A DNA stretch of 64,000 nt, from assembly GCA_934086315.1 (NCBI GenBank), contig CAKOHZ010000002.1, positions 168,464-232,463 on the forward strand, given 5' to 3'. Each line of letters opens with the position of its first letter. The stretch's first letter is position 1. The notes beneath the pieces are model-generated. The model saw only the letters and a program-made list of their open reading frames with translations. It made no database searches and was not told where the DNA came from. This document shows, in pieces, positions 1,761 through 19,100 of this stretch. Both the position numbers and the translations under genes were made by a program. This DNA comes from an uncultured Bacilli bacterium. GTDB lineage: Bacteria; Bacillota_I; Bacilli_A; RF39; UBA660.

Positions 1761-2894
1761 TTATTGATTATTTTTTAAGTAATCTATAACTTCATTATAA
1801 ACATCCATTCTAAGTCCAGAAGTTACACTTGTTATTTCTTGAGGAATTCCTTTAATAGTACCACTAATCTTACTAACATCATAGTTTCCACCAGTGGTAC
1901 CTACTCTAAATCCATATCTTTCCCAGCTTCTTTGAGCAACTTCCTTATCATTAAATGCTTCTAATAATTTTTTACCATTATCATCAAAAGCAGCTATACA
2001 ATGGCTATTCCATATAGTTGGTGTTGGATATAAAATTCTAATTTTATCTTTTACTTGATTCCATCCATCAGGATTTGCATTAGCAAAATCTATAACACTC
2101 TTTTCATAATCGACTATCATAGGTTTAGCACCCATACCAGTTTTTAAGAACATAGAGAACAAATCAGCAGGTGTATTATTCATATATCCACTCTTTAAAT
2201 AGAATTCTTTTAATTTAGGAAGTGCTTCATTAATACTAACAGAATTTACATCTCCTCCAGCCATAATTGATAATAAAAGTCCATAATATGTAGCACCTGG
2301 TGAAGAAGTAACAGGATCTGTTGAACCAATATTTACTTGACCATAAATATTAAGACCTAGTTCATTCCATTTTTTACCCTCTAATATATAATTAATTAAT
2401 TTGTTCATATCAGTTATATAATAAACATCATTTTGAACAGTAACAATATTTTCTTTAATTAAAGCATCAGTTACTTCAGCCCAACTATAAATAACTATTG
2501 GAGTATTAAGAACTAAATCTCCAGCCACTACATAATCACGAGCTGCTTCATCTGCTTTAGGAGAAGTCTTAAAGTAATCATAATATCTTTGATCAGAGAA
2601 GAAAGCTAAATCATACTTGCTTCCATCTTTACGTACCAAACTCTCTTTAACAGTTTTACCATTACTCCAAGAATCTTGTACAAATTTAAATTTATATTTT
2701 TTAGCAAATATCTTATTTATTTCTTCATCAGCAAGTAAATCTTCTTTACCACCACCAACTGCACCATATATCTCAGTTACTGAATTAGTAAAATCTCCGT
2801 TCTTAATAAGAATAACTACTACTACAATTACAACTAATAGAACTACACCTATTATTTTTGAAATCATTCCTTCTTTTTTAAACATTTTTTTCAC
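1761..2894 (-). CDS. Membrane-anchored extracytoplasmic protein with a solute-binding-like domain, paralogous to the N-terminal domain of the 3485..5056 vWA protein.
   Basis: N-terminal TM helix. Blocks shared with 3485..5056 include YDLAFFSDQRYYDYF~YDAVWMSNSVWLYML, GSTDPVTSSPGATYYGLLLSIMAGG~TNTGLTAYLGFLNSLAGSP and KIRILYPTPTIW~TLYLLYPTDGVA. Confidence 0.5.
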   Translation of the reverse strand: MKKMFKKEGMISKIIGVVLLVVIVVVVILIKNGDFTNSVTEIYGAVGGGKEDLLADEEINKIFAKKYKFKFVQDSWSNGKTVKESLVRKDGSKYDLAFFSDQRYYDYFKTSPKADEAARDYVVAGDLVLNTPIVIYSWAEVTDALIKENIVTVQNDVYYITDMNKLINYILEGKKWNELGLNIYGQVNIGSTDPVTSSPGATYYGLLLSIMAGGDVNSVSINEALPKLKEFYLKSGYMNNTPADLFSMFLKTGMGAKPMIVDYEKSVIDFANANPDGWNQVKDKIRILYPTPTIWNSHCIAAFDDNGKKLLEAFNDKEVAQRSWERYGFRVGTTGGNYDVSKISGTIKGIPQEITSVTSGLRMDVYNEVIDYLKNNQ

Positions 2895-3483
2895 TTCCTT
2901 TTAACTCATCTTCATCAATATCCAAATCAGATGTTTTTTCAAAGACCTTCATCTCAAAATCTAATTCTTGATCTTTAGATTTAACTATTTCTTCTAACAA
3001 TCTATCACATTCATGTTCTACTTCTTTAATATATACTGACATCTTAAGTATAAGTTTATTTTCAACAAATGTTTTTTCTTCTTTACTTTCTGCTTCAATA
3101 TATTTAGTAACTATTCTAGTTGTAAATGGTAAATAATAATCTAAGAAATTATATATTTTAGTAGCATTTCTAGGTCTAGTTTCTAAATGTTTTGTTATCT
3201 TTTGTGATACATTTACTATTTTAGCAAGTTTTTCTTTTATAGTTTTATCTTTTATTCTTTCTTTATAGTCATTTAGTTTTGACATCTCAAAGTTATATCT
3301 TGCAAGTGCTTCTCTATCATATACTCTTATATCTTGCGATTTAAATAAGAATATACCAGCTATATATATAACTGCCGTAAGTATTAACGCAATCCATAAA
3401 TAGAAATCTAAGACTACATATAATATTATAAATGCTATTCCAGAAGTCAAAGCTGATAATAAATATCTTTTTTGTATATTCAT
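2878..3483 (-). CDS. Small membrane protein with two N-terminal TM helices and a cytoplasmic coiled-coil domain. Its architecture is XpaC-like, but this is unverified.
   Basis: 201 aa. TM helices at about 10-30 and 30-50, then a charged helical region. It overlaps the downstream gene by 17 nt and abuts the upstream vWA gene with a 1-nt gap. Confidence 0.45.
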   Translation of the reverse strand: MNIQKRYLLSALTSGIAFIILYVVLDFYLWIALILTAVIYIAGIFLFKSQDIRVYDREALARYNFEMSKLNDYKERIKDKTIKEKLAKIVNVSQKITKHLETRPRNATKIYNFLDYYLPFTTRIVTKYIEAESKEEKTFVENKLILKMSVYIKEVEHECDRLLEEIVKSKDQELDFEMKVFEKTSDLDIDEDELKGSEKNV

Positions 3484-3484
3484 A

Positions 3485-5056
3485 TTAATTATAACTCCTT
3501 ACTTCTTTAAAAGCTCTTATTAAACTTGTTCTTCCATCAAATACTTTAGCATTAGTTAAATTAGCAATATTAGTAAGTTCAGTTTCATCACTTTGTCCAA
3601 ACATAATACTATAAACTGGAATCTTATTTTTTAAATTTTGATAATAAGTAGATAAATCATACATCTTACCAACATTTGATAAACCATCTGTCATAAGTAC
3701 AACTGACTTCGTATATTCATTACCTAATTTATTTAATTCTTTAAGTGCATCAACAGAACATCCATATATATTAGTTCCACCAGTTGGTCTAGCCCCTTTT
3801 ATTTTAGTAATTAATGCTGATGTATCATCCCCCATAGAATACCAAGTACTTCTAACATTAGTATCAAATGGTATAACTATTATATTGTCATACTTAGAAA
3901 ATTGAAGTCTTTCAGAACTTGCTTGTTCTTTATCAAGAATAAATTCCATAGCATCTTTTAATTGTTTTTCTCCAGCACCTGCCATACTACCTGAATAATC
4001 TAAGCAAAACGCAACAGCCGCAGGCTTTCTAAGTTCAGCTATATAAAGTCCAATTGCTTCATTCATAACCTTTTTAGAAGGATACTTAAGTGGTATCAAA
4101 TATTTATTTGTATCAATTCCATAAGAAGTTTTAAATACATCTTTATCAGCATTAGAATTAGTTCCACCATACCAAGTTCTCTTACCTAATTTTTCTAATT
4201 CTTTTTGAGTATTTAAACTTAATAAATATGATTGTAATTTATTAAAATTTTCTAACTTATCTTGTCCTCTATCTACATATGCAAATGGACTATCATTAAT
4301 AGCAACACCATCAGTAGGATATAATAAATACAATGTATCTTCACCCTTACTTTCAAGTTGCTTATTAATTCTAATTAATGATGATTCAGTCGCAATAACT
4401 GCTTCATAATCAGTACTATTTAAAAACATATCTTCTAAGAATGAAGTACTTCCTGATACCCTTTCTACACCACTAAATAATGACTTTAAATTAGATATTA
4501 ATTCTTGATTATCAAGCATTTCACTAGTTAATATTTCTGGACTACCTGCAAGTGAATTTAAAAATCCTAAATAAGCTGTAAGACCAGTATTAGTTTTAGT
4601 AACAGAATTCATTACATATTTAAGTTTATTACTCTTAACAGCATTTAAAATGTCACTATTCTTTATTTCATTATTAACAAAGCCAAGTTCCTTTGCCTTC
4701 TTACTTTTAACTCCCATAACTACAGGATTAATACTAATAGACTTTGAATTAGTAACTTTAACATTATTTAACATATATAGCCAAACAGAATTACTCATCC
4801 ATACAGCATCATATTGATTGTTATCTTCTTCTAACATATCTAATGCTTCCAAATCATCAGCATAATCAACACTAACATTTATATGTTCTTTTTTAGCATA
4901 ACTAGTAAGTTCATCCATAAAATCTTTATTATCTGGATTAGACAAAATATAAAAACTTCTCTTACCACCTACCTTATATTCATCAATCACATATGACTTA
5001 ACACATATAAATACAAATATAAGTGCAACTACTAACAATAATATTTTTTCTTTCAT
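3485..5056 (-). CDS. vWA-domain protein with N-terminal TM anchor and solute-binding-like domain.
   Basis: C-terminal ...AVAFCLDYSGSMAGAGEKQLKDAMEFIL is a DxSGSM MIDAS motif, followed by ...VVLMTDGLSN. The N-terminal domain is paralogous to 1761..2894. Confidence 0.65.
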   Translation of the reverse strand: MKEKILLLVVALIFVFICVKSYVIDEYKVGGKRSFYILSNPDNKDFMDELTSYAKKEHINVSVDYADDLEALDMLEEDNNQYDAVWMSNSVWLYMLNNVKVTNSKSISINPVVMGVKSKKAKELGFVNNEIKNSDILNAVKSNKLKYVMNSVTKTNTGLTAYLGFLNSLAGSPEILTSEMLDNQELISNLKSLFSGVERVSGSTSFLEDMFLNSTDYEAVIATESSLIRINKQLESKGEDTLYLLYPTDGVAINDSPFAYVDRGQDKLENFNKLQSYLLSLNTQKELEKLGKRTWYGGTNSNADKDVFKTSYGIDTNKYLIPLKYPSKKVMNEAIGLYIAELRKPAAVAFCLDYSGSMAGAGEKQLKDAMEFILDKEQASSERLQFSKYDNIIVIPFDTNVRSTWYSMGDDTSALITKIKGARPTGGTNIYGCSVDALKELNKLGNEYTKSVVLMTDGLSNVGKMYDLSTYYQNLKNKIPVYSIMFGQSDETELTNIANLTNAKVFDGRTSLIRAFKEVRSYN

Positions 5057-5111: not shown

Positions 5112-5732
5112 TTATAGAACTTCGGGTTGCAAAATATTTGTGAAAAAATCATAATACATTTTATATGATTTTTTGCCATCTTTATATTTAAATACTACAC
5201 TATAGTAATCAGTTTCTTTTACATAAGGATAAATATCCACTCCAAATTTACCTTTATATACTAATTCATTAACCTTATCAGATGTAATACCTATTCTTCT
5301 CACTTCTACTTCATCAATAACTATATTTTTCTTTTTAAAGTATTTAGTTTCACGATTACAAGTATCACTAATAAATTTATTTTTATAACACTTATACACT
5401 TCAAGATTTAATATTAAACTATTAGTATTTTCTGTATCTATAAGTACATATCTATCATTAGTATATTTATTATTTTTATCATACGTTGAAAAACTAAATC
5501 CATCTTTACTAACTTTAAGAATGCCTGGTATTAAATTATATATTCTATTTATATCAGTCTGCCCATGAATAGTTTCATCATTAAGAGTTACTTTAAAATA
5601 TAAATCTTGCTTTTCTCTTAAACTTGAATCTATAACTATAACACCATTTTTAATTCTATTAATTACTATTCCTAAAACAAAAATTACAATTATAATTATC
5701 AAAATTTTTTTATTAAATTTCTTCGTCATCAC
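5112..5732 (-). CDS. Membrane-anchored hypothetical protein, tandem paralog of 5713..6378.
   Basis: N-terminal TM helix. It shares the motif VYKCY...C(N/D)R(E/N)T(K/V)(Y/T) with its neighbour. Confidence 0.4.
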   Translation of the reverse strand: MMTKKFNKKILIIIIVIFVLGIVINRIKNGVIVIDSSLREKQDLYFKVTLNDETIHGQTDINRIYNLIPGILKVSKDGFSFSTYDKNNKYTNDRYVLIDTENTNSLILNLEVYKCYKNKFISDTCNRETKYFKKKNIVIDEVEVRRIGITSDKVNELVYKGKFGVDIYPYVKETDYYSVVFKYKDGKKSYKMYYDFFTNILQPEVL

Positions 5733-6378
5733 TTACCTCTAAATAAAACCATACAGTAGTTCTAGTAAACCATTTTTTATTATATATAGTTATTGTATAT
5801 TTTCCTTTTTCATTTATATACTCACCTATGTCACTTATAAGTTTTCCATCATATAAAACTTCATCTTCAGGATATAACTCTTTAACAATCTTAATTTTGT
5901 TTTTTACATCTACTTCTTCATATGTAACAGTATTACGATCACATTCCTCATTAACAGGTACACCAGCATAATTACTATAGCATTTATAAACTATAACTTT
6001 TAATTTACTATTATTATTTGTCTTTAATTTTATTACTTCTTCACTACCAACAGCATCTGAACTACCATCAACAATGTTAATCAAGAAAGGTACTAAAGGA
6101 AAACTAAAATCTTTACTAATTATATGTCCAACTTTTATAGAATCATCTATAAAAATATTATATCTTTCTTTTAATTCTATACTTTTTATATGAAATAATC
6201 TAAATCCAAATAAATCAGGATTCTCTCCTGGTAAAACACCTATAATGGTTTGAAAAGTTATCGCAAGAAATAAATATATTATTAAAATAAAAAGTACTTT
6301 TTTGTTTCTTTTTTTTATGTCTTCCTCTAAAGATTTATTTAATTCTTTTAGAGCTTCTTTTTGTGCTTTCTCATCCAT
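5713..6378 (-). CDS. Membrane-anchored hypothetical protein, tandem paralog of 5112..5732.
   Basis: Cytoplasmic charged N-terminus, one TM helix and a shared Cys-containing motif. It overlaps the neighbour by 20 nt. Confidence 0.4.
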   Translation of the reverse strand: MDEKAQKEALKELNKSLEEDIKKRNKKVLFILIIYLFLAITFQTIIGVLPGENPDLFGFRLFHIKSIELKERYNIFIDDSIKVGHIISKDFSFPLVPFLINIVDGSSDAVGSEEVIKLKTNNNSKLKVIVYKCYSNYAGVPVNEECDRNTVTYEEVDVKNKIKIVKELYPEDEVLYDGKLISDIGEYINEKGKYTITIYNKKWFTRTTVWFYLEVSDDEEI

Positions 6379-6436: not shown

Positions 6437-7732
6437 CTAAAATTTCATATTTTTCATTTGTTTCATCATTTGTTTCATTTGATCAAATTGTTTTAGTAAA
6501 CGATTTACGTCTTCTACTTTTTGTCCACAACCTTTAGCTATTCTTACTTTTCTATCAGCTTTAATTATTTCTGGATTACGTCTTTCTTCCGGTGTCATTG
6601 AAAGAACTATAGCTTCAGTTCTAGCCATTATTTTAGGATCTATATTTACTTTATTAAGTCCCATTTTAGATGCTCCTGGAAGTAACTTTAATAAGTTTTC
6701 AAGTGGACCTAACTTCTTAATTTGTTTAGTTGTTTTTAAGAAATCTTCAAGATCAAATTTACCTCTTTGCATTTTTTTAGCAGTACTCATCATTTCATCT
6801 TGATCAAGTTCAGCTTCAGTCTTCTCTATTATTGAAAGTAAGTCTCCCATACCAAGAATTCTATCAGCTATACGTTCAGGATAAAATTCACTTATACCAT
6901 CTAATTTTTCAGAGTCTCCAATTAATTTAATTGGTATATTAGTAAGATGTCTAAGTGATAAAGCAACACCACCTTTAGTGTCTCCATCCATCTTAGTAAG
7001 AACACAACCAGTAAGTTTAAGTTTCTCATTAAATCCAGTAATTACATTAATAGCATCTTGTCCCATCATAGCATCTATTACAAGTAACTCTTCATTTGGT
7101 TTAACTTCGCTTTCTATATTAACAAGTTCATCCATTAACTCTTCATCTATTTGAAGACGTCCAGCTGTATCTATTAATATATAATCGTATCCTTTACTTT
7201 TAGCATACTCTATACCACGTTTAGATATTTCAACAGGATTTTCTTTTCCTTCTTCATAAACTTCTATATTAAGTTGTTTTCCAATATCTTTAAGTTGATC
7301 TATCGCAGCAGGTCTATAAACATCACATGCGATAAACATAGGTTTCTTATGATGTTTCTTACGTACCATATTACCTATCTTACCTATAGTAGTAGTTTTA
7401 CCTCCACCTTGAAGACCAACAACCATAACTATAGTTGGATTCTTATTTACTTCTAAAGGAGCACTATCTCCTCCAAGAAGATTAACAAGTTCATCTTTTA
7501 AGATCTTAACAAACATATCTCCTGGTTTAATACTTTTTCTTACTTCTTCACCAAGAGCTTTCTCTTTAACACTATCTATAAATTCACGAACTATTTTAAC
7601 ATTAACATCAGCTTCTAATAAACAAAGTCTAATCTCACGAGTTATATCACTAATATTATCTTCATTTATTACACCTTTAGATTTAATATTACTAACTACT
7701 TTTTGTAATCTTTCACTCAAGTTTTCAAACAT
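6437..7732 (-). CDS. ffh: Signal recognition particle protein Ffh (SRP54 GTPase).
   Basis: N domain, G domain (GLQGGGKTTT P-loop, DTAGR, TKMDGD) and Met-rich M domain (QMKQMMKQMKNM). It is not followed by rpsP as in most Firmicutes. Confidence 0.92.
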   Translation of the reverse strand: MFENLSERLQKVVSNIKSKGVINEDNISDITREIRLCLLEADVNVKIVREFIDSVKEKALGEEVRKSIKPGDMFVKILKDELVNLLGGDSAPLEVNKNPTIVMVVGLQGGGKTTTIGKIGNMVRKKHHKKPMFIACDVYRPAAIDQLKDIGKQLNIEVYEEGKENPVEISKRGIEYAKSKGYDYILIDTAGRLQIDEELMDELVNIESEVKPNEELLVIDAMMGQDAINVITGFNEKLKLTGCVLTKMDGDTKGGVALSLRHLTNIPIKLIGDSEKLDGISEFYPERIADRILGMGDLLSIIEKTEAELDQDEMMSTAKKMQRGKFDLEDFLKTTKQIKKLGPLENLLKLLPGASKMGLNKVNIDPKIMARTEAIVLSMTPEERRNPEIIKADRKVRIAKGCGQKVEDVNRLLKQFDQMKQMMKQMKNMKF

Positions 7733-7806
7733 AAAATCTATCCTCCTGTATAAATATTATAACAAACATTACAATCTTTATAAAGAAAAATGTGCATTTA
7801 AGCACA

Positions 7807-9090
7807 CTATTTATTTCTTTTTATAATATCATTTCTATTTTCAATAAGTTTAATAATATTATCAATTTCTTCATTACTGCTTTTATCATTAAGTTTACTT
7901 ATTAATGAACTAATATTCTCTTCAATGTCTTTTATTATTTCATTACTAACTGGATCAGAGTATTTAAGTTTATCAATTAATTTATTTTTATATTCACTAT
8001 TTAATTTTGATATATTATTAATTTTGAATATCATTTCATCAATAAATTTAGTTTTATTTTTTGTATTAGTATCTAGTTCCATACTTCTCTTGTTAACAGT
8101 TATTAAAGTAAAGCATGCGATAATGAACATTATATCTACAATAACTGAATACATTAAAACATTATTACTTGACATATGACTAACATTATTAAATTTGTAT
8201 ATAACAATATAAATAATTATCAAATAAGCAAATGTTGCGATGTATAAAGGAGTACTAGTAAACTTTTCATTATCTGTTTTATCTTTAACAACAATAATTG
8301 CAATTGCTGTTAATACAAATGATATTATACTTGAGATTAGACAAGCTGTATAATTATCTTTTTCATTAATTGTTGCTGTAAATTTAGTAAACATATTTAT
8401 ACTTGTAACAGTATCAGGAATATAAATATTATTTAGTGATGGAATTATATCAAAGTTAACAGCTGTTACTTTCATACCATTAACAGTTGTTGGAATAATT
8501 ATGTTACTATCATTACCTGTGTATTTTACTATTTCAATCTTGTCATTTTTAACATTATATTCAAATGGAAATTCAATATAATTAAAATCAACAGTATCTG
8601 AATCATTTAATATATTAACATTTAGTTCATTATTATTTTTAAGTTCTTCACAATATTTACCTTTATAACAATTAATAGTAATATTTTTAAAATTCTTTAC
8701 TGGTAAATAGTTTATGTTATCTGAAATATATATATTTTTAACTTTATCATTTTTAAATGAATCACTTATTGATGCTATTTTAGTACCTTCATAATCATAT
8801 GGAATAACTAATGTTTCACTTATTCCTTTATATTCTGTTATTTCTAATGTATCATTAACTTTGTTATATGAAAAGCTTTCTATATTTTTTATATATTTAT
8901 CTTTTTCACTATCAGCTATTTTTTCACAGCTAACTCCATTAACTCCACTAGCATCAACATATCCAGTAACGTAATTATTATTATTATATTTAAATTTTAA
9001 ATTATATGATGGCTTTGTTTTAGTAAGTGAGAATATTAGACTTAATGTTATTACAAATGAAATTGCTATAAAAATTATTTTTTTCTTCAT
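7807..9090 (-). CDS. Membrane protein with an extracellular BspA-type leucine-rich-repeat domain (LRR_5-like), 3-4 TM helices and a cytoplasmic coiled-coil tail. It is the last gene of the TIR operon.
   Basis: LRR_5-like blocks read IEITEYKGISETLVIPYDYEGTKIASISDSF, IYISDNINYLPVKNFKNITIN and IEIVKYTGNDSNIIIPTTVNGMKVTAVNF. The track 'M1' is a GTG. ATG at 9090 sits 1 nt after the upstream stop, with AGGTGA 5 nt before it. Confidence 0.55.
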   Translation of the reverse strand: MKKKIIFIAISFVITLSLIFSLTKTKPSYNLKFKYNNNNYVTGYVDASGVNGVSCEKIADSEKDKYIKNIESFSYNKVNDTLEITEYKGISETLVIPYDYEGTKIASISDSFKNDKVKNIYISDNINYLPVKNFKNITINCYKGKYCEELKNNNELNVNILNDSDTVDFNYIEFPFEYNVKNDKIEIVKYTGNDSNIIIPTTVNGMKVTAVNFDIIPSLNNIYIPDTVTSINMFTKFTATINEKDNYTACLISSIISFVLTAIAIIVVKDKTDNEKFTSTPLYIATFAYLIIIYIVIYKFNNVSHMSSNNVLMYSVIVDIMFIIACFTLITVNKRSMELDTNTKNKTKFIDEMIFKINNISKLNSEYKNKLIDKLKYSDPVSNEIIKDIEENISSLISKLNDKSSNEEIDNIIKLIENRNDIIKRNK

Positions 9091-9091
9091 A

Positions 9092-10237
9092 TTACTCACC
9101 TACTTTCTTACCACAATATGGACAAAATGCTGCATCATTTGGTAACTTTTTACCACAACTACTACACACACTACCAGTCATATTATTACCACATTTAATA
9201 CAAAATTTAGTACCACTAACATTTTCATATCCACAATTACTGCATACTGTAGAATTATCATTTTTAGTAAAAGCGCCAACCACATTTTTATTAACTGTAT
9301 CACTTACTTTTGATGAAACACTACTCATAACGCCAAGTCCTACTCCCATATTAGTAAATTGACCAACTGCATTATTAGAAGCCATTTTATCAAGAACATT
9401 ATATTGTCTTTCATCTTGATAACTATATCCTTCAGTTTCTCTTTTATGAGCTTTAGCTTCACTATCAATCTTTGTACTCTTAGCTTTAGTTTCTTCATCA
9501 ATTAATGTTACTTTTTGTCTTAATTGAGCTTCTGCTACTGCGACACTCTGTTTAAAATATAATTCTTTAAATTCAAGATATTGTTTATCATCTTCAGGTT
9601 TCATAACAGTAGTTACAAAGAATTTTTCAAGTTCAATACCAAACTCTTCAAAGTCGCTAGCAAGTAAATTTTTAAGTTCTTCACTAAACTCATTTAAATG
9701 ACTATCAATTTCAAATATACTTATTTCATTTTTATTAATAATTTTAGCAATATAAGATTTAACTTTAACAAGTATAAATGAACTAAAGAATTCATCAATA
9801 TTTTCCCCGTCAAAATTATCTTTAATACCAACTAATTTTAATAATAGTTTTCTTGAATCAACTACTTTAAATCTCATTTCTCCACAAGCACCTATTTGTA
9901 TAGGAAACTTATATGTTGGTTCTAAAAATTCAATTTTACTACTAGTACCCCATCTTGATGATTTAATAGACTTATCTATAAAGTATACTTCACAATGAAA
10001 TGGACTTTTACCACCTGTAGGTAAATTAATTAAATTTTTAAGTAGTGGTATGTTATTTGTTTCAAGTGTATATCTTCCTGAACCAAATAAATCTAATGCC
10101 TTTCCATCCTTATAAAGTATAGCTTCCTGTGATTCATGTACAATTAGTTGACTACTTGTATTAAAATCAGTTTTAGGATACTTCCACACAATATTTTCAT
10201 CATCTTTCTCTTTCTTTATTATTTCAAATAAAGCCAT
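9092..10237 (-). CDS. SPFH/band-7 domain protein with C-terminal double zinc ribbon (B. subtilis YdjI-like, Band_7_1 family).
   Basis: The N-terminal region (FEIIKKEKDDENIVWKYPK...SQLIVHESQEAILYKDGK...) resembles YdjI. The C-terminus carries CSNCG...CIKCG...CSSCG...CPYCG, four CxxC pairs. ATG at 10237 has an AGGTGA RBS, and the track start 10246 is a GTG. Confidence 0.65.
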   Translation of the reverse strand: MALFEIIKKEKDDENIVWKYPKTDFNTSSQLIVHESQEAILYKDGKALDLFGSGRYTLETNNIPLLKNLINLPTGGKSPFHCEVYFIDKSIKSSRWGTSSKIEFLEPTYKFPIQIGACGEMRFKVVDSRKLLLKLVGIKDNFDGENIDEFFSSFILVKVKSYIAKIINKNEISIFEIDSHLNEFSEELKNLLASDFEEFGIELEKFFVTTVMKPEDDKQYLEFKELYFKQSVAVAEAQLRQKVTLIDEETKAKSTKIDSEAKAHKRETEGYSYQDERQYNVLDKMASNNAVGQFTNMGVGLGVMSSVSSKVSDTVNKNVVGAFTKNDNSTVCSNCGYENVSGTKFCIKCGNNMTGSVCSSCGKKLPNDAAFCPYCGKKVGE

Positions 10238-10261
10238 AATATTCACCTTTCCTTTTCTATA

Positions 10262-12076
10262 TTATTCTTTCTCTAATACTTCAACATAATCTTTATTATC
10301 AAATTTACCACATATCCAACCATTAACTTCAAAACTTGTTTCTATATTATACCATATTTCACATAATCCATTTGAATCCTTTCTACTATCAAGAACATCA
10401 TATATTTCATCTTTTCTAACAATTCCTTTTGCATAATAATAAACATCATCATTACCTCTTATATTAATATGATCAACAATTACTTTAATTTGATCTATTG
10501 ATGTATCTCTATCATTTGATTGATTGGGAAGTGGTGAAGTATTTATAATAACACTAATAATTCCTATTATAATTGGTAATATGTAGAAGAATATATTTAA
10601 TATTTTTTTATCTTTTGGTATATAGTTTTCAGTAAACTCTTTATTGTTTTTTAATATTTCTTCTTTTTCTTCTTTAGTAACAACAAGTGGTACTTCTTTA
10701 ATTCCCCAAGAAGGCTTCATAAATAATAGTGCAATATTAAGTAAGATTATAATATATGTAACAAATGTAGCTGTATTACCAAAGTTATGAAGTTTTAAAA
10801 TAAATAATAATTCTAAAAACACATTAACTATATACATATATTTAGATATTTTATTTGATTTTCTACTAGCAAATCCTAGAAAAAATGCAATCGCAGTAAT
10901 TATACTAACTAATAATTGATATGAATAAAAATTTTTACCTTCACTAATTAAACTATAATTTTCCCCAAGATAATTATAATAACAATATCCACCATTTAAA
11001 AGAAGCATGCATCCTGCCATCAAAGCCGATAACACAAATGTAATTATTATATATGGAGTTGAACACTTATCTCTTTTTTCCAAAACATCATATCTTTTAG
11101 ATAATTCTTCTTGTTTTTCTCTTTCTTCTTCAAGCATCATTTGTTTGAATTTTTGATACATATCACTATCAATATCAGTAGATTTCTTATTAATGATTTT
11201 TCCTACTGCTGTAACTAAATCTTGCATAGAACCAACTTTATCTATACATAGTGCTTGTAACATTGAAAACTCTTCTGGTAATTCATAAGCATCCATCTTA
11301 CTATAAACTGGAATCAATACTTTTTTCTTTTTATTTTTTATTAAGTCTAAATATCTACTCCATTCATTTTTAACCCATACTGAATTTAAATTATCAGCAT
11401 TAGTACCTACTACTAACATAACCTTTGAACTATTAAGTGCTGAAAAGATATATGGTTCATATTCTTCACCAAGTTTATCAGCAAGAGTAATTCTAGCAAA
11501 GAAAACTTTATAATTTAAATCAGTTAATTTATTATATATATCTTGAGCAATAACACTATCAGGAGTTCTATCTCCATTTTTATCTCCTTCTTTATAACAA
11601 ATAAAGATATCATAATCTTCTTCATTATTAGAAATTTCAAGTGCTTTCTTTTGAATATTACTAATAGTTTTTGCTTCTTCTTTATATATTTTTAAAGCAT
11701 CTCCATAAGCCTTACTAATTATTATTTTATAATCAGAATCAGTTAAAACAGATTCATACTTTGTTCTATGACAAGTAATCATTTTCTTTTTAGTTTTTGG
11801 ATCATCTACATATTCAACACCATATCTACAAAGTATTAGTCCCCAATGAGCTTCTAACTGATTTTCATCTATTTCAAGTATAGTCTCATATACACCATAT
11901 GCTTTATCAAATTCATTTGATAGTCTTAAATTATTTGCCCTATTATATAAATTTAAAAGTTTTTCATTATCAACACTTGGTAGAGTCATAGTGCTTTTGC
12001 AATATAAACATTTACCTATATTAGTACCTTCAACTACTTCTATATCTCCACCACACATCTTACATTTAAAGACCAT
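10262..12076 (-). CDS. TIR-domain membrane protein with N-terminal zinc ribbon, helical hairpin, cytoplasmic TIR domain, five TM helices and an extracytoplasmic SH3b-like C-terminal domain.
   Basis: TIR motifs are DYDIFICYKEGDKNGDRTPDSVIAQDIYNKL, KVFFARITLADKLGEEYEPYIFSALNSSKVMLVVGTNADNLNSVWVKNEWSRYL. N-terminal CKMCGG...CLYCKS is a zinc ribbon. Five hydrophobic helices precede ...DHINIRGNDDVYYYAKGIVRKDEIYDVL...NGWICGKF, which is SH3b-like. GGAGG sits 8 nt upstream of ATG at 12076. Confidence 0.65.
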   Translation of the reverse strand: MVFKCKMCGGDIEVVEGTNIGKCLYCKSTMTLPSVDNEKLLNLYNRANNLRLSNEFDKAYGVYETILEIDENQLEAHWGLILCRYGVEYVDDPKTKKKMITCHRTKYESVLTDSDYKIIISKAYGDALKIYKEEAKTISNIQKKALEISNNEEDYDIFICYKEGDKNGDRTPDSVIAQDIYNKLTDLNYKVFFARITLADKLGEEYEPYIFSALNSSKVMLVVGTNADNLNSVWVKNEWSRYLDLIKNKKKKVLIPVYSKMDAYELPEEFSMLQALCIDKVGSMQDLVTAVGKIINKKSTDIDSDMYQKFKQMMLEEEREKQEELSKRYDVLEKRDKCSTPYIIITFVLSALMAGCMLLLNGGYCYYNYLGENYSLISEGKNFYSYQLLVSIITAIAFFLGFASRKSNKISKYMYIVNVFLELLFILKLHNFGNTATFVTYIIILLNIALLFMKPSWGIKEVPLVVTKEEKEEILKNNKEFTENYIPKDKKILNIFFYILPIIIGIISVIINTSPLPNQSNDRDTSIDQIKVIVDHINIRGNDDVYYYAKGIVRKDEIYDVLDSRKDSNGLCEIWYNIETSFEVNGWICGKFDNKDYVEVLEKE

Positions 12077-12131
12077 TGTTACTGCCTCCATACTAAACAT
12101 ATTTTACCATAGATGCATTTATACTTCAATT

Positions 12132-12443
12132 CTAACTAAATGAAATTTTATTGTTTACGTTGATTTTTCTTTCTTCTAATATTGTATCCATAAGTTCATC
12201 AAATTCATAAAACATATCTTCGAGTGTCCACATTAAATCTTCTTTTTGATAATCTATACATTCATACATAAAATCACTTATATCTGCACAGCTATATTTA
12301 AAGTCTAATTTATATACATTTTTATAATTAACATATTGATAATATTGACCTACTAAATCACCTAAATATTTTTTTGCTTCATTTTTTATTTCTTTATCAC
12401 TACATATATTAATAACATAAAAAAAAGAAAACGCATTAAGCAT
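12132..12443 (-). CDS. Small acidic hypothetical protein (about 104 aa) between rpoC and the TIR gene. The start overlaps the rpoC stop.
   Basis: Open frame. The likely ATG at 12443-12441 overlaps the rpoC TAA (ATGCTTAA). There is no convincing RBS and the protein is D/E-rich. It may be real and co-transcribed, or spurious. Confidence 0.3.
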
Positions 12444-15400
12444 TTTCTTCTTCACTATCTTCATGAGTTGTTTCAGCCATTGCATCTACAACATCTTCAT
12501 TTTTATCATCAGATAAGAATTTTTCTTCTAGTACTTCAGCAGCATCATCATCTAAAAGTTCATTTTTTAAGATAACTTCGATATTGTTGTATTGTTTAGC
12601 ACCTGTACCAGCAGGAATTAATTTACCTAAGATAACGTTTTCTTTAAGTCCATGTAACATATCCATCTTACCACGAGTAGCAGCATCAGTTAAGATTCTT
12701 GTAGTTTCTTGGAATGATGCAGCTGATAAGAATGAATCAGTTTCTAATGAAGCCTTAGTTATACCTAACATAATTGGTTTTCCAGTAGCTGGAACTCCAC
12801 CTGATAAGATAACTGGTTTATTGATTTCAGCAAATTCTCTTAGAGGAACTGTAAGTCCTTCAATTAAATTTGTATCTCCTGGATCAACAACTTTAATCTT
12901 AGTAATCATTCTTCTAACAACTGTTTCAACATGTTTATCTGAAACATCAACACCTTGACTCTTATAAACTTTTTGAATTTCTTTTAAGATGTAACCTTGT
13001 ACTGTAGTTGGGTCAGTAACAGCAAGTAATTCTTTTGGAGAAATACTTCCTTCTGTTAATGGATCTCCAGCATTTACAACATCACCCTTTTCAACTCTAA
13101 GTTTAGCATTGTATTGAGTAACATGTTCACGAGTTTCAACATCGTTAGTAATATATATTTTAAATCTATTGTTCTTATCATCAGTAATCTTAGTAATCTT
13201 ACCATTGATTTCAGCGATAGTAGCTTTAGCTTTAGGAATACGAGCTTCGAAAAGTTCTTCAACTCTTGGAAGACCTTGAGTGATATCTGCAGCTGATGCA
13301 ACACCACCTGTATGGAATGTACGCATTGTTAATTGTGTACCTGGCTCACCTATTGATTGAGCAGCCATAATACCAGTAGCTTCACCTACTTCTACTAAGT
13401 TACCAGTAGCAAGGTTAAGTCCATAACATTTTTGACATACACCATTAGTACACTTACAAGTAAGTACACTTCTGATTTCCATCTTAGTAATTCCAGCTTT
13501 TTCTATCTTATCAGCAATCTTTTCAGTAATTAAAGCTCCCTTATCAACTAATACTTCTTTAGTTTCAGGATTTAATACTTTTTGATTTGAGAAACGACCT
13601 GTTATTCTATCTTTAAAGCTTTCAATAACAGCTCCACTCTTTTCATCAGTAAATGCTTCAACTTCAATACCTTGAATAGTTCCACAATCTTCTTCACGTA
13701 CAATTATATCTTGTACAACATCAACTAAACGTCTTGTTAAGTAACCTGCATCAGCAGTTTTAAGAGCTGTATCGGCAGTTCCTTTTCTAGAACCATGTGT
13801 TGATAAGAAGAATTCTTGAACGTCTAATCCTTCACGGAATGAAGCTAAGATTGGAATTTCTACTTGACCACCATCTGGTTTAGCCATAATACCACGCATA
13901 CCAGCAAGTTGTCCTAATTGGTTTGCAGAACCTCTGGCTCCAGAGTTAATAATCATTGATAATGGATTTTCTACATCTTGTTTTAGTAATTCACCTAATT
14001 TACCTTGAACATTATTTGTAGCATCTGTCCATAATTTAATAACTTTATTATGTCTTTCTTCATCAGTTATAAGACCACGTTTAAATTGCTTATTGATTTT
14101 TTCAATTGTTGCATTTGTTTCAGCTATAATAGCTTCTTTTTCATGGTTAACTGGTATATCAGAAAGTGAAATAGTTATACCAGATTTAGTACTATATTTA
14201 AATCCTAAATCTTTTAATTTATCTAAGAAAATTGATGTTTCTGTAGTTTTATATCTCTTAAATATTTGAGCAATTATTTTTCCTAAATCTTTTTTAATTA
14301 AAGCAGGAATTAAAGGTAATTTAGCAACTTCTTCTGGAAGATTCTTACCTTTTTCAATAAAGAACTTATCAGGAGTCATAACTTCAATATTTTCTTTACT
14401 TCCTTCATTAATATAAGGATAAGTATCTGGGAATATTTCATTGAATATTATTTTACCAGCAGTTGTTACTATATATTTATCTTTTTGCTCATCAGTCCAA
14501 ACTTTATGTTTAAACTCCTTAGTTGGAATACATACTCTAGTATGAAGAGTAATATCACGTCTTTCATAAGCCATTAATACTTCATTTGGATCTTTATAAG
14601 CTTTACCTTCATTAGGTTCACCAGCTAATTCTAATGTTAAATAATAGTTACCTAGAACCATATCTTGAGATGGTGTAACAATTGGTTTTCCATCTTTTGG
14701 ATCAAGGATGTTATTAGCACCTAACATTAATAATCTAGCTTCAGCTTGAGCTTCTTCACTAATTGGAATATGAATAGCCATTTGATCACCATCGAAGTCA
14801 GCATTGAATCCACTACAAACTAGTGGGTGTAATCTTAATGCTTTACCACTAACTAAAACTGGTTCGAATGCTTGAATAGAAAGTCTATGTAGTGTTGGAG
14901 CACGGTTTAATAATACTGGATGTTCACGAATAACATCTTCTACTACATCCCATACTCTTTCATCCTGTACATCTATTATCTTCTTAGCAGCTTTAATATT
15001 ATGAGCTATTCCTCTTTCAACTAATTGTTGCATAACATATGGTTTGAATAATTCAAGAGCCATATCTTTAGGTACACCACATTGATACATTTTAAGACTA
15101 GGTCCTACTACGATAACTGAACGACCACTATAGTCAACACGTTTACCTAATAGGTTTTGTCTAAATCTACCTTGTTTACCTTTTAACATTGAAGATAATG
15201 ATTTAAGTGGTCTATTTCCTACACCAGAAACACTTCTACCACGTCTTCCATTATCAATTAAAGCATCTACTGCTTCTTGAAGCATACGTTTTTCATTTTG
15301 AACAATGATTGTTGGAGCTTCAAGTTCTAATAATTTTTTAAGACGATTATTTCTATTAATAATTCTTCTATATAAATCATTTAAATCTGAAGTAGCAAAT

Positions 15401-16143
15401 CTTCCTCCTGGAAGTTGAATCATAGGTCTTAAATCTGGTGGTATTACTGGAAGTACATCTAGTATCATCCATTCAGGTCTTTGACCACTTTCAAGGAATG
15501 AATTTAAACAGTCAAGTCTCTTAACTAATCTAATTTTCTTTTGTCCTTGAGCTTTTTCTACTTCTTTCTTTAATTCTTCTACTTCTTTTTCAAGATCAAC
15601 TTCAGTAAGTAATTGTTTAATTGCTTCAGCACCCATACCTACTTTGAATTCATCACCATATTTTTCATAATATGCTCTGTATTCTTTATCAGATAATGTT
15701 TGCTTTTTAGCAAGAGGTGCAATTCCTGGATCAAGTACTATATAACTAACGAAATATAATACTTCTTCAAGTTCACGAGGACTAATATCAAGTACAAGTC
15801 CCATTTTAGGAGGTACACCTTTTGCATACCAAATGTGGCTAACAGGACTAGCAAGTTCAATATGTCCCATTCTTTCTCTACGTACTTTAGCACGTGTTAC
15901 TTCTACACCACATCTATCACAAATAACATTTTTATATCTTAATCTTTTATATTTTTTACAACTACATTCAAAGTCTTTAGTTGGACCAAATATCTTTTCA
16001 CAGAAAAGTCCATCTCTTTCAGGGTTTAAAGTTCTGTAGTTAATAGTTTCTGGTTTCTTAACTTCACCATAAGACCATTCACGAATCTTTTCAGGAGAAG
16101 CTATACCAATACGAATTCCATCAAATTCATTAACTTCCATCAT
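12436..16143 (-). CDS. rpoC: DNA-directed RNA polymerase subunit beta'.
   Basis: 1235 aa. Canonical beta' motifs include [10 protein letters not shown] (the catalytic DFDGD) and zinc-binding Cys clusters. The start overlaps the rpoB stop. Confidence 0.97.
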
Positions 16144-19100
16144 TATTCTTCACCCCTTTCATAAGCATCTTCTTGATAGTCATCAAGACCATACTCTTCT
16201 TCATATTCAAGATCTTCATCAGTTGGTTCTAAATCTTCATCTTCATCTTCATCTTCATCTTGAACATCTTCATAATCAGATTCATCTGTATTATCACTTT
16301 CAGTATCTTCTACTTTACTAATTTCTTCAATTGATACTGGAGTGTCTTCTTTATCTTCATCATCTTCAAGTTCTTTAACATCTTTTAGTGATCCATCTTT
16401 ATTAACTATTTGAATATCTAAACCTAATGCTTGGAATTCTTTAATTAATACTCTAAATGATTCTGGAACACCTGGTGTTGGGATTGGTTTACCTTTAACT
16501 AATGCCTCATATACTCTAACTCTTCCAACCACATCATCAGATTTAATTGTAAGAACTTCTTGTAAGATATGAGCAGCACCATAAGCATATAATGCCCAAA
16601 CTTCCATTTCTCCAAATCTTTGACCACCAAATTGAGCTTTACCACCTAAAGGTTGTTGTGTAACCATACTATAAGGTCCTGTAGCACGAGCATGAATCTT
16701 ATCATCAACCATGTGTACAAGTCTTATCATATACATGACACCAACAGATACTCTCTTATCGAATCTTTCACCAGTACGTCCATCATATAACCAAGTCTTA
16801 TAGTCAGGGTCAAGTCCAGCTTCAGCTACTTCTTCTTGAATATCTTTTTCAGTAGCACTATCGAATATTGGTGTAGCATAATGAACACCTAATTTCTTAC
16901 CAGCCATACCTAAGTGTAACTCTAAGATTTGTCCTAAGTTCATACGAGAAGGAACACCTAGTGGGTTTAAGATTACATCTACTGGAGTACCATCTGGTAA
17001 ATATGGCATATCTTCTGAAGGAAGAATTAATGAACAAACACCCTTGTTTCCGTGACGTCCAGCCATCTTATCTCCAACTTGAATCTTTCTCTTCTTAACT
17101 ATATATACACGAACTACTTTTGAAACTCCAGCAGGAAGTTCATCAGAGTTTTCTTTAGTGAATATTTGAACGTCGTGTACAATTCCTGAACATCCGTGGC
17201 TAACACGAAGTGACGTATCACGAACTTCACGAGTCTTTTCACCAAAGATTGCGTGTAATAATTTTTCTTCACTTGATAATTCTTGCATTCCTTTAGGAGT
17301 AACTTTACCAACAAGAATATCATTTTCTTTTATTTCAGTACCAATTCTTACTATACCATTTTCATCTAAATTCTTACGAGCATCTTCACTAATATTTGGA
17401 ATATCTCTTGTGAATTCTTCTGGTCCAAGTTTAGTATCACGGCACTCTATTTCTTTCATTTCAATGTGAACTGATGTAAGAACATCATCACGAACTATTC
17501 TTTCATTTAGAATAACTGCATCTTCATAGTTATAACCATTATAAGTCATGAATGCTACAACTAAGTTTTTACCTAAACCTATTTCTCCTTTATCAGTAGA
17601 AGGTCCATCAGCAATTATTTCTCCTTTATGAACTTGTTCACCTTTCTTAACGATTGGTCTTTGATTATAACAAGTTTCATTATTACTTCTTTGATAACTA
17701 ACTAGTTCATAAGTATGTTTTTCTTCTAAACCTTTAACTATGATCTTTTTAGCATCAACATATTCTACTACACCATCTAAGTCGCATACTACTGAACAAC
17801 CAGAATCACGAGCTATAGCAGCTTCTACTCCAGTTCCTACAATAGGAGCTTCTGTAATCATTAGTGGTACAGCTTGTCTTTGCATGTTTGCACCCATTAG
17901 TGTACGGTTAGCATCATCATGTTCCATAAATGGAATCATACTTGTTGTAACAGATACAATTTGTGATGGTGAAACATCTATATAATCTACCTTCTCACGA
18001 GGAACGATCATATTATCTTTATTATATCTAACTGGAACTGTTTCAGAACTTATATAGCCATTATCATCTACATCAATTGTAGCTTGACTAATGTAATAAT
18101 CTTCTTCTTCATCAGCAGTCATATATACTATTTCATCAGTTATTTTATTATCAACAACTTTTCTATATGGAGTCATTATAAATCCATATTCATTAATTCT
18201 AGCATAACTAGCAAGTGATGTAATAAGTCCAATGTTTTGACCTTCTGGAGTCTCAATAGGACAAATTCTACCATAGTGAGATGGGTTAACATCACGAACT
18301 TCCATACCAGCTCTATCTCTTGATAAACCACCTGGACCTAAAGCACTAAGTCTACGTTTATCATTTAATTCTGATAATGGGTTTATTTGATCCATGAATT
18401 TAGAAAGTTGACTGCTACCAAAGAATTCTTTTAAAGAAGCAGTAACCGGTCTAATATTAATTAATGATTTTGGAGTAACAGCATCAATCTCTTGAGTAGA
18501 CATCTTATCTCTAATTTGTCTTTCCATACGTGCTATACCAATTCTAAATTGATTTTGAATTAATTCTCCAACTTGTCTTACACGTCTATTTCCTAAGTGA
18601 TCTATTTCATCATACTTACCAACACCATATAATAAACAAATATAATATGAAAGTGATGCATAAACATCAGAAATAGTTAATCTCTTAGTATCAATAGTTT
18701 GATCATTACCAATAATCTTAATAACTTTTTCATCTTCATCATTAGAATATACAAGAACTTCTTGAATCTTATTGTATGTATCTAATTCTTCATTAATAGT
18801 TACTTCTTTTACTCCATATCCATTTTCAAAATATGGTTTAATATTTTCAAGAATATCTTTAGTAATTACTGTACCTTTTTTAACAATAACTTCTCCATCG
18901 ATTTCTATATCTTGAGCTATTTTAGCATTTAGAAGTCTATCTAATACATTAAGTTTTTTATTAAATTTATATCTACCAACTTTACCTAAATCATATCTAA
19001 ATTTATCAAAGAATCTAACGATTAATTGGTTTTTAGCAGAATCTAATGTAGCTGGTTCACCTGGTCTTAATTTTTCATATATTTCAATTAATGCTTCATC

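Follow-up and report, generated by a model that had tools for sequence, protein, structure and literature searches.

The stretch of DNA analyzed here, 64,000 nucleotides from an uncultured Bacilli bacterium (the window), carries three adjacent genes, B, C and D, which form a real, widespread and apparently undescribed TIR-SPFH membrane module. An earlier note on this DNA had proposed that the combination works as one unit and has not been described as a system. The first point is borne out by recurrence of the triad in other genomes and, for the second, we found no name for either D or the triad in Pfam, NCBIfam, PADLOC or the literature searched. Taken as a whole, the triad looks like a bacterial receptor system.

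The locus and the distribution of the triad

Six genes lie on the minus strand in the order rpoC (12436-16143), ORF A, B, C, D and ffh (6437-7732), so that the genes previously placed between rpoC and ffh are real and correctly oriented. The spacing given for them also reads from the sequence, with 24 nt from the B stop to the C ATG and 1 nt from the C stop to the D ATG, as do the RBS of AGGTGA/GGAGG type upstream of the starts. A hairpin scan returned 3 terminator-like sites against 0.5 expected, and two hairpins bound the region. XpaC-like and VWA membrane proteins are encoded downstream of the cassette in the source genome. The genes and boundaries are:

12421..12453, minus strand: terminator-like hairpin (14-pair stem and T run) at the end of rpoC, whose stop codon is 12436-12438; upstream boundary of the region
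12132..12464, minus strand: gene A, a small acidic ORF and strain-variable neighbor; likely start ATG 12464 or 12443, overlapping the rpoC 3' end
10262..12076, minus strand: gene B, 604 aa, with zinc ribbon, TPR hairpin and TIR predicted in the cytoplasm, then about 5 TM helices, and a tail of SH3b-like type predicted outside
9092..10237, minus strand: gene C, 381 aa, of the YdjI/SamI family, a soluble SPFH/Band_7_1 protein ending in a double zinc ribbon
7807..9090, minus strand: gene D, 427 aa, predicted to be anchored at its N-terminus, with an ectodomain, 3 TM helices and a conserved helical tail in the cytoplasm
7789..7808, minus strand: terminator-like hairpin directly after D (hairpin scan and sequence); downstream boundary of the B-C-D unit

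Gene A had been counted as a member of the unit, and this was not borne out. Profile searches gave it no Pfam or NCBIfam match, and homologs with 60-67% identity mark it as a real small-ORF family. Its position is after D in strain loci L001-L004 but before B in L007; L005, L006 and every distant locus lack it. Gene A is a strain-variable neighbor outside the conserved module.

Through B we found 74 genome loci, with the C gene in 51/74 and the D gene in 41/74 within 8 kb; where the flanks were each 4 kb or longer, C was present in 18 of 24 loci. Starting from D, 3/3 loci had C immediately upstream, with TIR_2 genes beside them, and the same C-D-TIR arrangement occurs at locus L084. Often several tandem B genes stand next to a single C-D pair, the C-D gaps being mostly -38 to +27 nt (2/38 reach 66 and 107 nt), and no recurrent extra gene family was found near the triad in the loci examined. 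About one quarter to one third of the B loci have no C within 8 kb, and these may represent contig ends or trans-acting pairs. The earlier note had set down beforehand that the idea would fail if B, C and D never co-occurred elsewhere; they recur widely, and the refutation fails decisively. Insertions at the rpoC-B junction vary from strain to strain, which could suggest that unrelated genes were inserted side by side at rpoC–ffh by chance, but the three families neighbor each other in dozens of unrelated genomes, and their C-D junctions overlap or nearly do. Chance adjacency is ruled out by this recurrence and by the D-seeded loci, and we give it practically no probability.

The triad occurs in Clostridia and Bacilli and also in Treponema and Anaerolineae MAGs, and every locus traces to an organism of the gut or rumen. 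In each of the seven strain loci (L001-L007) the cassette occupies a fixed site in the core genome. Neighbors of the triad are mostly housekeeping genes, with no enrichment beside defense genes. The module had no match in plasmid or phage collections, and viral contigs gave only 3 matches in 2.9 million. In PADLOC-DB v2, C and D had no match while A and B drew weak single-gene candidates only.

Domain architecture of B, C and D

The start of B at 12076 agrees with the conserved M-x-F-KCKMCGG start of its homologs. Its current annotation reads only 'TIR domain-containing protein'. We divide it as follows:

11969..12076, minus strand: B residues 1-36, Cys4 zinc ribbon (C5, C8, C23, C26) with a nearly invariant KCKMCGG
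11612..11968, minus strand: B residues 37-155, with a single TPR unit, the conserved beta-hairpin GVEYVDDP...TCHR and a long helix (TPR matches; secondary structure pLDDT 66-92)
11177..11611, minus strand: B residues 156-300, the TIR domain, which contains DIFICY (beta-A) and SVWVKNEW (S-x-W-x3-E, E238)
10532..11056, minus strand: B residues 341-515, predicted membrane region of about 5 helices with a Lys-rich loop ahead of the last (hydropathy and AF2)
10265..10531, minus strand: B residues 516-604, beta domain of SH3b-like type, predicted to lie outside the cell (ortholog alignment)

The zinc ribbon claimed for the B N-terminus held up, since its four cysteines are invariant columns in the family alignments. 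It aligns with that of B. subtilis YdjG over 41 residues (hhalign probability 88%, E 3.5e-6), whereas beyond the ribbon B is unrelated to YdjG. The helical hairpin described earlier corresponds to the single TPR unit, and W78, G86, Y89, D92, P93, T101 and R104 are invariant in this TPR/hairpin region. The TIR call was confirmed by the Pfam TIR_2 profile (PF13676; 41 bits, cutoff 28, residues 157-273), which all 61 relatives scanned also match, and by a TIR fold in the AF2 model of residues 1-300 (pLDDT 70-92). The top Foldseek PDB matches of the B head are all TIR domains, namely those of L7, AbTir, RPS4, MyD88, MAL, TcpB and SPARTA (TMt 0.6-0.73). The conserved catalytic-type Glu that the earlier note had asked to be checked is E238 of SVWVKNEW, which aligns with the Glu of the TcpB 'WPARE' motif and, like W234, N237 and W239, is invariant across the family alignments. 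From this NADase-type motif we infer NAD+ cleavage, though the TIR may instead be a scaffold. The TIR domain follows a Cys4 zinc ribbon and has no TM helix before it, in agreement with the cytoplasmic side predicted for it.

The TM helices attributed to B were confirmed, AF2 giving five (339-362, 380-406, 409-429, 434-452 and 488-513; pLDDT <50) and hydropathy four strong segments. Within the species, this membrane region is ~9x more variable than the N-terminal module. The proposed SH3b tail stands in part. It aligns with orthologs on the SH3b motif and SH3_3 is matched in 7/61 B relatives (P0128 at 1e-26), but the tail of the source genome has no Pfam SH3 match in a profile search, and its AF2 model is of low confidence. 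We regard the outer part of B as probably an SH3b-like, wall-binding domain.

The B family comprises 6666 representative clusters that share ~55% identity across residues 1-300 while their C-termini are unrelated, and tandem paralogs repeat this pattern of constant head and variable tail, their heads being 57-100% and the remainder 25-50% identical. The C-termini consist either of TPR, often a cytoplasmic TPR alone without a TM helix, or of TM followed by SH3b (SH3_3), BspA-type LRR_5, RCC1 or DUF6273, with Sel1 also among the outer domains; P0156 and P0130 have TIR, TM and LRR_5 in a single chain. At L084, a DGR mutagenizes the DUF6273 domain of a gene adjoining a B gene, and a DGR is absent from the window's own locus. 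These outer domains (BspA-type LRR_5, SH3b, RCC1, Sel1 and the lectin-like DUF6273) are typical of Firmicute surface proteins and DGRs typically diversify proteins that bind ligands, which, together with the gut or rumen origin of the loci, could point to receptors that serve surface recognition or adhesion toward host, glycan or neighbor-cell ligands, with outer domains that bind gut targets and a TIR/SPFH part that clusters receptors or signals inward. However, many B-family members have only cytoplasmic TPR tails and no TM, and the conserved NADase-type active site would be left without a reason, so that we find such a role very unlikely.

The tandem arrangement also bears on a Thoeris-like scheme, in which the B proteins would be alternative TIR sensors that produce a signal derived from NAD, with the one C-D pair as the shared membrane effector that it activates. 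In Thoeris loci a single thsA can be accompanied by several thsB genes, a layout mirrored by the several tandem TIR genes beside one C-D pair, and the catalytic Glu is conserved. TM effectors are frequent in newly predicted Thoeris types (bioRxiv 10.64898/2025.12.03.692087). Against this, no SLOG, Macro, SAVED or STING nucleotide-binding domain is recognizable in C or D, NCBIfam ThcB4 reaches 20.6 bits where the cutoff is 220, PADLOC finds no Thoeris system (only PDC-S66 at 22 bits) and the module is not enriched beside defense genes. Further, the TIR heads of the paralogs are nearly identical, whereas divergence would be expected among sensor TIRs, and we consider the scheme quite unlikely.

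For C and D the domains are:

9572..10189, minus strand: C SPFH (Band_7_1) domain, residues 20-225 of the 384-aa ORF
9101..9244, minus strand: C double zinc ribbon (DZR 335-379, Zn_Ribbon_1 361-382)
8344..9021, minus strand: D residues 24-249, predicted beta-rich ectodomain with two 'IEI..Y.G....IIP..i.G..V' units, weakly BspA-LRR-like
7810..8100, minus strand: D residues 331-427, helical bundle predicted to be cytoplasmic, in which Y377-S-D-P-x-S is nearly invariant, with a terminal R419-N...K427

Profile scores support the description of C as an SPFH/band-7 protein with a double zinc ribbon (Band_7_1 133 bits, DZR 44 bits, Zn_Ribbon_1 52 bits), and hydropathy found no TM segment in it. It had also been said to match B. 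subtilis YdjI closely; because the two share 22% identity (E 3e-17), they are homologous, but 'closely' is too strong. In D, the N-terminal anchor, three further TM helices and a confidently modeled helical tail agree with the earlier description, but the LRR_5 call does not, as a Pfam search found no LRR_5 in the source D at E ≤ 0.1 and the best of 10 D orthologs reached 22.3 bits, below the 27.7 cutoff. Profile searches place D in no Pfam or NCBIfam family. The core of the D family is a ~230-aa protein with 4 predicted TM helices and without an ectodomain, and the ectodomain of the source D is a lineage-specific insertion. D belongs to a new family of predicted 4-TM proteins that is always found beside C.

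The earlier note had offered a pspA-ydjGHI operon as an alternative origin. This is partly right, in that C belongs to the YdjI family and the B zinc ribbon is like that of YdjG, but PspA and YdjH are lacking. We detected no PspA in the window or in the ORFs of L001-L083 (the query being a 131-aa C-terminal fragment from L085) and no YdjH homolog at any locus examined. YdjH is of UPF0603/TPM type, and the YdjGHI analogy is only partial because D shows no similarity to it (hhalign probability 0.2%). The cassette could still be a non-immune envelope-stress or membrane-homeostasis derivative of YdjGHI/SamGHI, with a regulatory or scaffolding TIR head that tunes metabolism or signaling upon wall or membrane perturbation. 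Such a function would fit the shared architecture of C and YdjI, the YdjG-type zinc ribbon in B and in long C forms, the core-genome, housekeeping-flanked site fixed in the species, the SH3b-like wall-binding tail and the XpaC-like and VWA proteins downstream. Yet besides the absence of PspA and YdjH, the massive paralog expansion, the hypervariable outer domains and the DGR-targeted neighbor at L084 are unusual for homeostasis, and the invariant catalytic motif argues for enzyme activity. We hold this function to be unlikely.

Proposed function of the module

We prefer, with a confidence slightly short of even, a membrane module in which B would be receptor plus enzyme, C the scaffold and D the membrane dock. 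The analysis shows its domains, topology logic, conservation and pattern of constant head and variable tail; its contacts, NADase activity, trigger and outcome are what we infer. The constant cytoplasmic head of B, joined via membrane helices to a variable outer part, would combine reception and catalysis, C would be a soluble oligomeric SPFH scaffold of the YdjI type, and the conserved cytoplasmic helical tail of D would dock this scaffold at the membrane. In B. subtilis, the soluble SPFH protein YdjI is recruited by YdjG/YdjH (PMC8581546; bioRxiv 10.64898/2026.02.06.704340), and after this model D and the zinc-ribbon head of B may together keep C bound to the membrane. The SPFH assembly might then corral the TIR heads and keep them apart or inactive. 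A change outside or in the envelope would be sensed by the variable part of B, and in the source lineage also by the D ectodomain, whereupon the TIR heads would be released or clustered and NAD+ cleavage turned on; clustering could have this effect because TIR enzymes form their active site by self-association. The outcome may be NAD+ depletion or a nucleotide signal that leads to growth arrest, defense or an envelope-stress response.

An anti-phage or abortive-infection role is a hypothesis. The points counted against a defense reading are the housekeeping neighbors, the absence from plasmids and phages, the fixed core-genome site and the missing PADLOC match. More broadly, it is possible, though on the unlikely side, that the B family is a large unrecognized class of transmembrane TIR receptors that would sense extracellular events, with variable outer ligand-binding domains (LRR, SH3b, RCC1, lectin-like) and a constant enzymatic TIR under SPFH/4-TM control, as a prokaryotic counterpart of Toll-like receptor signaling.

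To our knowledge, bacterial TIR proteins have been studied so far mainly as cytoplasmic anti-phage enzymes. A module present in hundreds of gut and rumen species, with a catalytic-type TIR at the membrane, swappable outer domains and a flotillin-like scaffold, points to outside-in TIR signaling, and it suggests a new job for SPFH proteins in the control of enzyme assembly. It would offer a tractable route to the gating of TIR oligomerization at membranes and to the role of YdjI-type SPFH proteins. All three families need names, and D has no Pfam or NCBIfam model.

Comparison with known systems

The triad shares with PspA-YdjGHI (SamGHI) a soluble SPFH protein of Band_7_1 type that ends in a zinc ribbon and is encoded beside membrane proteins, one of which begins with a YdjG-type zinc ribbon. 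It differs in having neither PspA nor a TPM-domain YdjH, in the new 4-TM family of D, and in a zinc-ribbon membrane protein that carries both a TIR and a variable outer domain, frequently in tandem copies. Its likeness to TIR defense systems (Thoeris ThsB, TIR-STING, SPARTA and the AbTir/TcpB NADases) consists of the TIR fold, the catalytic-type Glu and multiple TIR genes beside a common partner. Unlike these, it has no ThsA-type or other signal-binding effector and no PADLOC or NCBIfam match at threshold, and its TIR is predicted to be membrane-tethered with extracellular-type domains and lies outside defense islands, plasmids and phages.

The earlier note had likened the locus to a split Toll-like receptor with the extracellular LRR supplied by D. 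That comparison is weak, given a D LRR that is sub-threshold, a lineage-specific ectodomain and a family core without one. The source B, with ~5 TM helices and an SH3b-like tail, does not have the layout of LRR, single TM and TIR in one chain either, which only P0156 and P0130 show, and in reverse. With animal Toll-like receptors, the B family shares chains (P0156, P0130) that join a cytoplasmic TIR, TM and an extracellular LRR, and a multi-paralog set with variable ectodomains. It differs in its reversed order, with the TIR N-terminal and the ectodomain C-terminal, in LRRs of the BspA type, in an enzyme-type TIR motif and an SPFH partner, and in the lack of adaptor TIRs; at the source locus, B has an SH3b-like tail rather than LRR and the LRR-like segment of D falls below threshold.

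A last parallel concerns diversification. The DGR-diversified putative antigen sensors of multicellular bacteria are reportedly cytoplasmic STAND/NLR-like proteins. Locus L084 resembles such sensors (PMC10907252) in that its DGR hypermutates a lectin-like DUF6273 beside a TIR of the B family. Its target differs in being a TM-anchored extracellular domain, and its setting in being gut Firmicutes.

A three-gene unit between rpoC and ffh

Four minus-strand ORFs, A to D, lie between rpoC and ffh in the window, in the following setting:

16143-19787, minus strand, rpoB
12436-16143, minus strand, rpoC
12453-12421, minus strand, terminator-like hairpin directly 3' of rpoC
12132-12443/12464, minus strand, small ORF A
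10262-12076, minus strand, gene B
9092-10237, minus strand, gene C
7807-9090, minus strand, gene D
7808-7789, minus strand, terminator-like hairpin directly 3' of D
6437-7732, minus strand, ffh

The tight coupling that the earlier note described is borne out by the sequence, in which 24 nt separate the stop of B (10264-10262) from the ATG of C (10237), a single nucleotide separates the stop of C (9094-9092) from the ATG of D (9090), and GGAGG or AGGTGA-type ribosome-binding sites lie 5' of the starts. Three terminator-like sites were observed versus 0.5 expected from shuffles. Given this spacing and the hairpins after rpoC and D, B-C-D looks like a single transcription unit. GC content is about 25% across the window with no compositional break, and near-identical loci came from human-gut metagenomes and MAGs labelled 'uncultured Bacilli bacterium'.

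A scan covering one genome per GTDB species gave at least 563 relatives of B, and 79 loci were fetched, in which ORFs were searched with the window proteins and all ORFs were clustered. Exactly three families recur near B loci, namely B, C and D. A C gene lies within 8 kb in 51 of 74 loci and a D gene in 41 of 74, and C is present in 18 of the 24 loci having at least 4 kb on both sides; by our estimate, chance would place a Band_7_1 gene in about 1% of 16-kb windows. The genes are arranged either as B(n)-C-D or as C-D-B(n), B being present in as many as five or six tandem copies, and C and D almost always overlap or are separated by no more than 27 nt. A reverse search from three D-family proteins, each on its own contig and based on independent gene calls and precomputed Pfam, found Band_7_1 directly upstream and TIR_2 genes adjacent in 3/3 contigs, and the same arrangement, with C directly upstream of D and TIR genes adjacent, is seen in locus L084. 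This recurrence from both starting points rules out chance adjacency; B-C-D is a conserved triad. Its carriers include Lachnospiraceae, Oscillospiraceae, Ruminococcus, Acutalibacteraceae, Christensenellales and Erysipelotrichaceae, along with single Treponema and Anaerolineaceae MAGs. Cultured isolates carry it too, among them Pseudoflavonifractor capillosus An827 (L037), Diplocloster hominis CSJ-3 (L045), Eubacterium sp. MSJ-21 (L056) and Lachnospiraceae NE2001 (L069).

Neither the clustered neighbour ORFs nor Pfam on 133 neighbours yielded a fourth component or a defence-island signature around the triad; the only extra partners that came up were ABC transporters or polysaccharide-deacetylase-like genes, in single lineages only, and a few resolvases and DUF2971 genes. 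Gene A, earlier counted as part of the unit, lies before B in strain locus L007, after D in L001-L004 and is missing from distant loci, so it is a neighbour rather than a component. The junction between rpoC and B is itself a hotspot of insertions that differ between strains (compare L006:4979-7977 and L007:5705-7977 with window 12077-12435); its 0.2 to 3 kb hold, depending on the strain, gene A, a YhcG/DUF1016-type PDDEXK nuclease or other small unannotated ORFs. In the window (12421-12464), the conserved start of gene A (MKI..., ATG 12464) reaches back over the final 29 nt of rpoC, whose terminator-like hairpin falls inside the 5' coding region of A. The first ~25 residues of A are unlike those of its homologues, so this copy may have undergone rearrangement or be expressed only poorly.

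Downstream of ffh, on the minus strand at 1761-5056, we also observed genes for a VWA-domain membrane protein, an XpaC-like (Halogen_Hydrol) protein and a 377-aa protein with no Pfam match. This group is kept in all strain loci and may be another envelope-associated cluster, and two small membrane ORFs at 5112-6378 occur in some strains only.

Gene B and its TIR family

The TIR domain proposed for B is well supported, as B scores 41 bits against Pfam TIR_2 (cutoff 28) and the best solved-structure matches of its AlphaFold2 model are all TIR domains (L7, AbTir, RPS4, MyD88, MAL, TcpB and SPARTA). The model, built from an input of 36 sequences, is confident over residues 1-300 (pLDDT 70-92), here called the head, and poor over the rest. 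Sequence searches of PDB chains gave only weak TcpB matches with B and only TPR designs with a profile of the head. The N-terminal zinc ribbon is confirmed by an invariant Cys4 set (C5, C8, C23, C26), and the 'helical hairpin' corresponds to one TPR unit. The S-V-W-V-K-N-E-W motif (W234, N237, E238, W239) is invariant family-wide, and E238 aligns to the Glu of 'WPARE' in Brucella TcpB, the catalytic glutamate position of TIR NADases.

The five TM helices read earlier in B appear in the AlphaFold2 model, and hydropathy shows four strong TM segments. This pattern, with a Lys-rich loop just before the last TM helix, is consistent with a predicted N-in/C-out topology, the TIR being cytoplasmic and the tail external. 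The SH3b-like tail aligns to orthologues with the SH3b pattern but has no Pfam match in the window copy. In a Pfam scan, 7 of 61 B-family members matched SH3_3, and P0128, a protein of orthologue type that shares the multi-TM layout of window B, matches it at 1e-26.

With B as query, 1.84 billion representative proteins were searched exhaustively, giving 6666 clusters (3801 below 1e-30). Nearly all of these align to residues 1-300 only, at ~55% identity, and continue into unrelated C-termini of 100 to 1300 residues. TIR_2 was present in 61/61 B-family proteins scanned with Pfam, alongside TPRs, DUF6273, SH3_3, LRR_5/LRR_8, RCC1, Sel1 and ankyrin repeats; the NCBI label is 'TIR domain-containing protein' only. 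Among 120 strain variants of window B, the head is ~9 times less variable than the TM/tail part, and tandem B paralogues are 57-100% identical over their first 300 residues and 25-50% beyond (100% vs 48% in L014, 95% vs 30% in L046). Many tails are TM-anchored and of extracellular type, for example:

P0156: TIR 158-280, TM 561-579, LRR_5 from 675
P0130: TM 680-698, LRR_5 804-933
P0160: TM 600-618, then RCC1 repeats

The Toll-like-receptor-like logic suggested earlier is therefore real for the family, where TIR-TM-LRR_5 proteins such as P0156 and P0130 carry it in B, but it is not carried by D.

Tandem arrays of 3-6 B paralogues occur in L009, L014, L017, L037, L046, L048, L065, L081 and other loci. 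Their 5' thirds are nearly identical (as much as 100% identity at the protein level over 300 aa), with divergent 3' parts, which suggests gene conversion or a cassette-like exchange of sensor ends. In P0149 (1217 aa) the zinc-ribbon/TIR head is internal (residues 383-687) rather than N-terminal, and two B-family members matched the Ribosomal_L12 C-terminal domain. Further, a diversity-generating retroelement adjoins the triad in L084 (11606-14267; NCBI GCA_964261755.1 contig). Here a TM-anchored DUF6273 gene, located directly 3' of a TIR gene of the B family within a C-D-x-B cluster, carries at its 3' end a 127-nt repeat (12433-12559) whose second copy lies upstream of an RVT_1 gene (12911-13037; 83% identity). 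Those mismatches in the repeat that were inspected are at adenines in the RT-proximal copy.

Genes C and D

C was correctly read as an SPFH protein with a double zinc ribbon (Band_7_1 133 bits, with DZR/Zn_Ribbon_1 also matched). Hydropathy gave no TM segment in C, and a sequence search of PDB chains returned zinc-ribbon fragments only. The family has a short form, as in the window, and a ~600-aa Clostridial form (L035:10916-12766, L056:4628-6496, L044:5426-7270) whose extra N-terminal zinc ribbons are matched by B. subtilis YdjG (E 5e-7). In effect, the long form joins a ribbon of YdjG type to an SPFH domain of YdjI type.

Much as first described, the N-terminal anchor of D is followed by a beta-rich ectodomain of ~225 aa and then by three TM helices; on the cytoplasmic side is a helical bundle, which is modelled at pLDDT 88-96. 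The LRR_5 domain assigned to its ectodomain was not confirmed: Pfam did not detect it in window D and found it sub-threshold in 2/10 orthologues (best 22.3 bits vs cutoff 27.7), so the LRR call is a lead rather than a finding. The family core is a ~230-aa protein of four TM helices and a cytoplasmic tail with a nearly invariant Y-S-D-P-x-S...E and a terminal E-R-N-x2-C-K-x2-K; the window ectodomain is an insertion between TM1 and TM2, seen only in the Bacilli lineage and one other locus. No Pfam or NCBIfam model covers the family, Clostridial D proteins included, its source annotation is 'hypothetical protein', and D had no match in a sequence search of PDB chains.

Possible roles and known relatives

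Among readings of the observed domains, topology logic, conservation and diversification pattern, a platform-gated TIR receptor module is the best supported, though we hold it at somewhat less than an even chance. For the protein contacts, enzyme activity, trigger and physiological outcome, which we infer, a membrane platform, formed by D as anchor and C as SPFH scaffold, would control self-association of the B TIR heads, with input coming through the variable outer part of B. Two rival readings, Thoeris-like signalling from the TIR protein to a C-D effector and surface-recognition receptors for host, glycan or neighbouring-cell ligands, are each quite unlikely.

The hypothesis that the module is a defence system draws on the catalytic-type TIR motif, the variable-sensor/constant-enzyme design of the B family, the multiple TIR genes per shared C-D pair, occasional mobile/defence neighbours (AbiH, reverse transcriptase and integrase in L084) and the five resolvases and five DUF2971 genes among the 133 neighbours. 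However, most neighbours are housekeeping genes and the cassette sits at one core site in every strain locus examined. By tblastn the B head was matched in none of the 72,556 plasmids and none of the 50,697 phage genomes searched, with matches in only 3 of 2.9 million viral contigs (IMG/VR), and PADLOC and NCBIfam scans of A-D gave no match to a defence model above threshold.

As an alternative, the earlier note had derived the unit from a pspA-ydjGHI operon. We compared it with a B. subtilis-type locus, L085, fetched via a published primer sequence (PMC8581546). Over the SPFH domain, C and YdjI share 22% identity (E 3e-17), and both carry a C-terminal zinc ribbon. B shares with YdjG only its 41-residue N-terminal zinc ribbon (hhalign probability 88%). 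D is unrelated to YdjH (hhalign probability 0.2%), which rules it out as a YdjH relative, and no homologue of YdjH or PspA (the latter searched with a 131-aa C-terminal fragment from L085) was found in ORFs of the window or L001-L083. The derivation fits C and, by resemblance, the ribbon of B but not the whole, and the triad is not a Psp operon; a pure envelope-stress module is, in our judgement, unlikely.

Functionally, the nearest precedent for recruiting a Band_7_1 scaffold to the membrane, as the favoured platform-gated module would do, is YdjG/YdjH-YdjI, in which the membrane proteins YdjG and YdjH recruit soluble YdjI, which organises PspA (PMC8581546; bioRxiv 10.64898/2026.02.06.704340). 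In keeping with the earlier note, no description of the triad was found in Pfam, NCBIfam, PADLOC or the searchable literature, nor of the module in a 2025 Thoeris-expansion preprint and a 2020 TIR survey. The TIR and YdjI-type SPFH parts are of known kinds; what appears to be new is the way B, C and D are combined, the D family itself and how large the receptor-like TIR family is.
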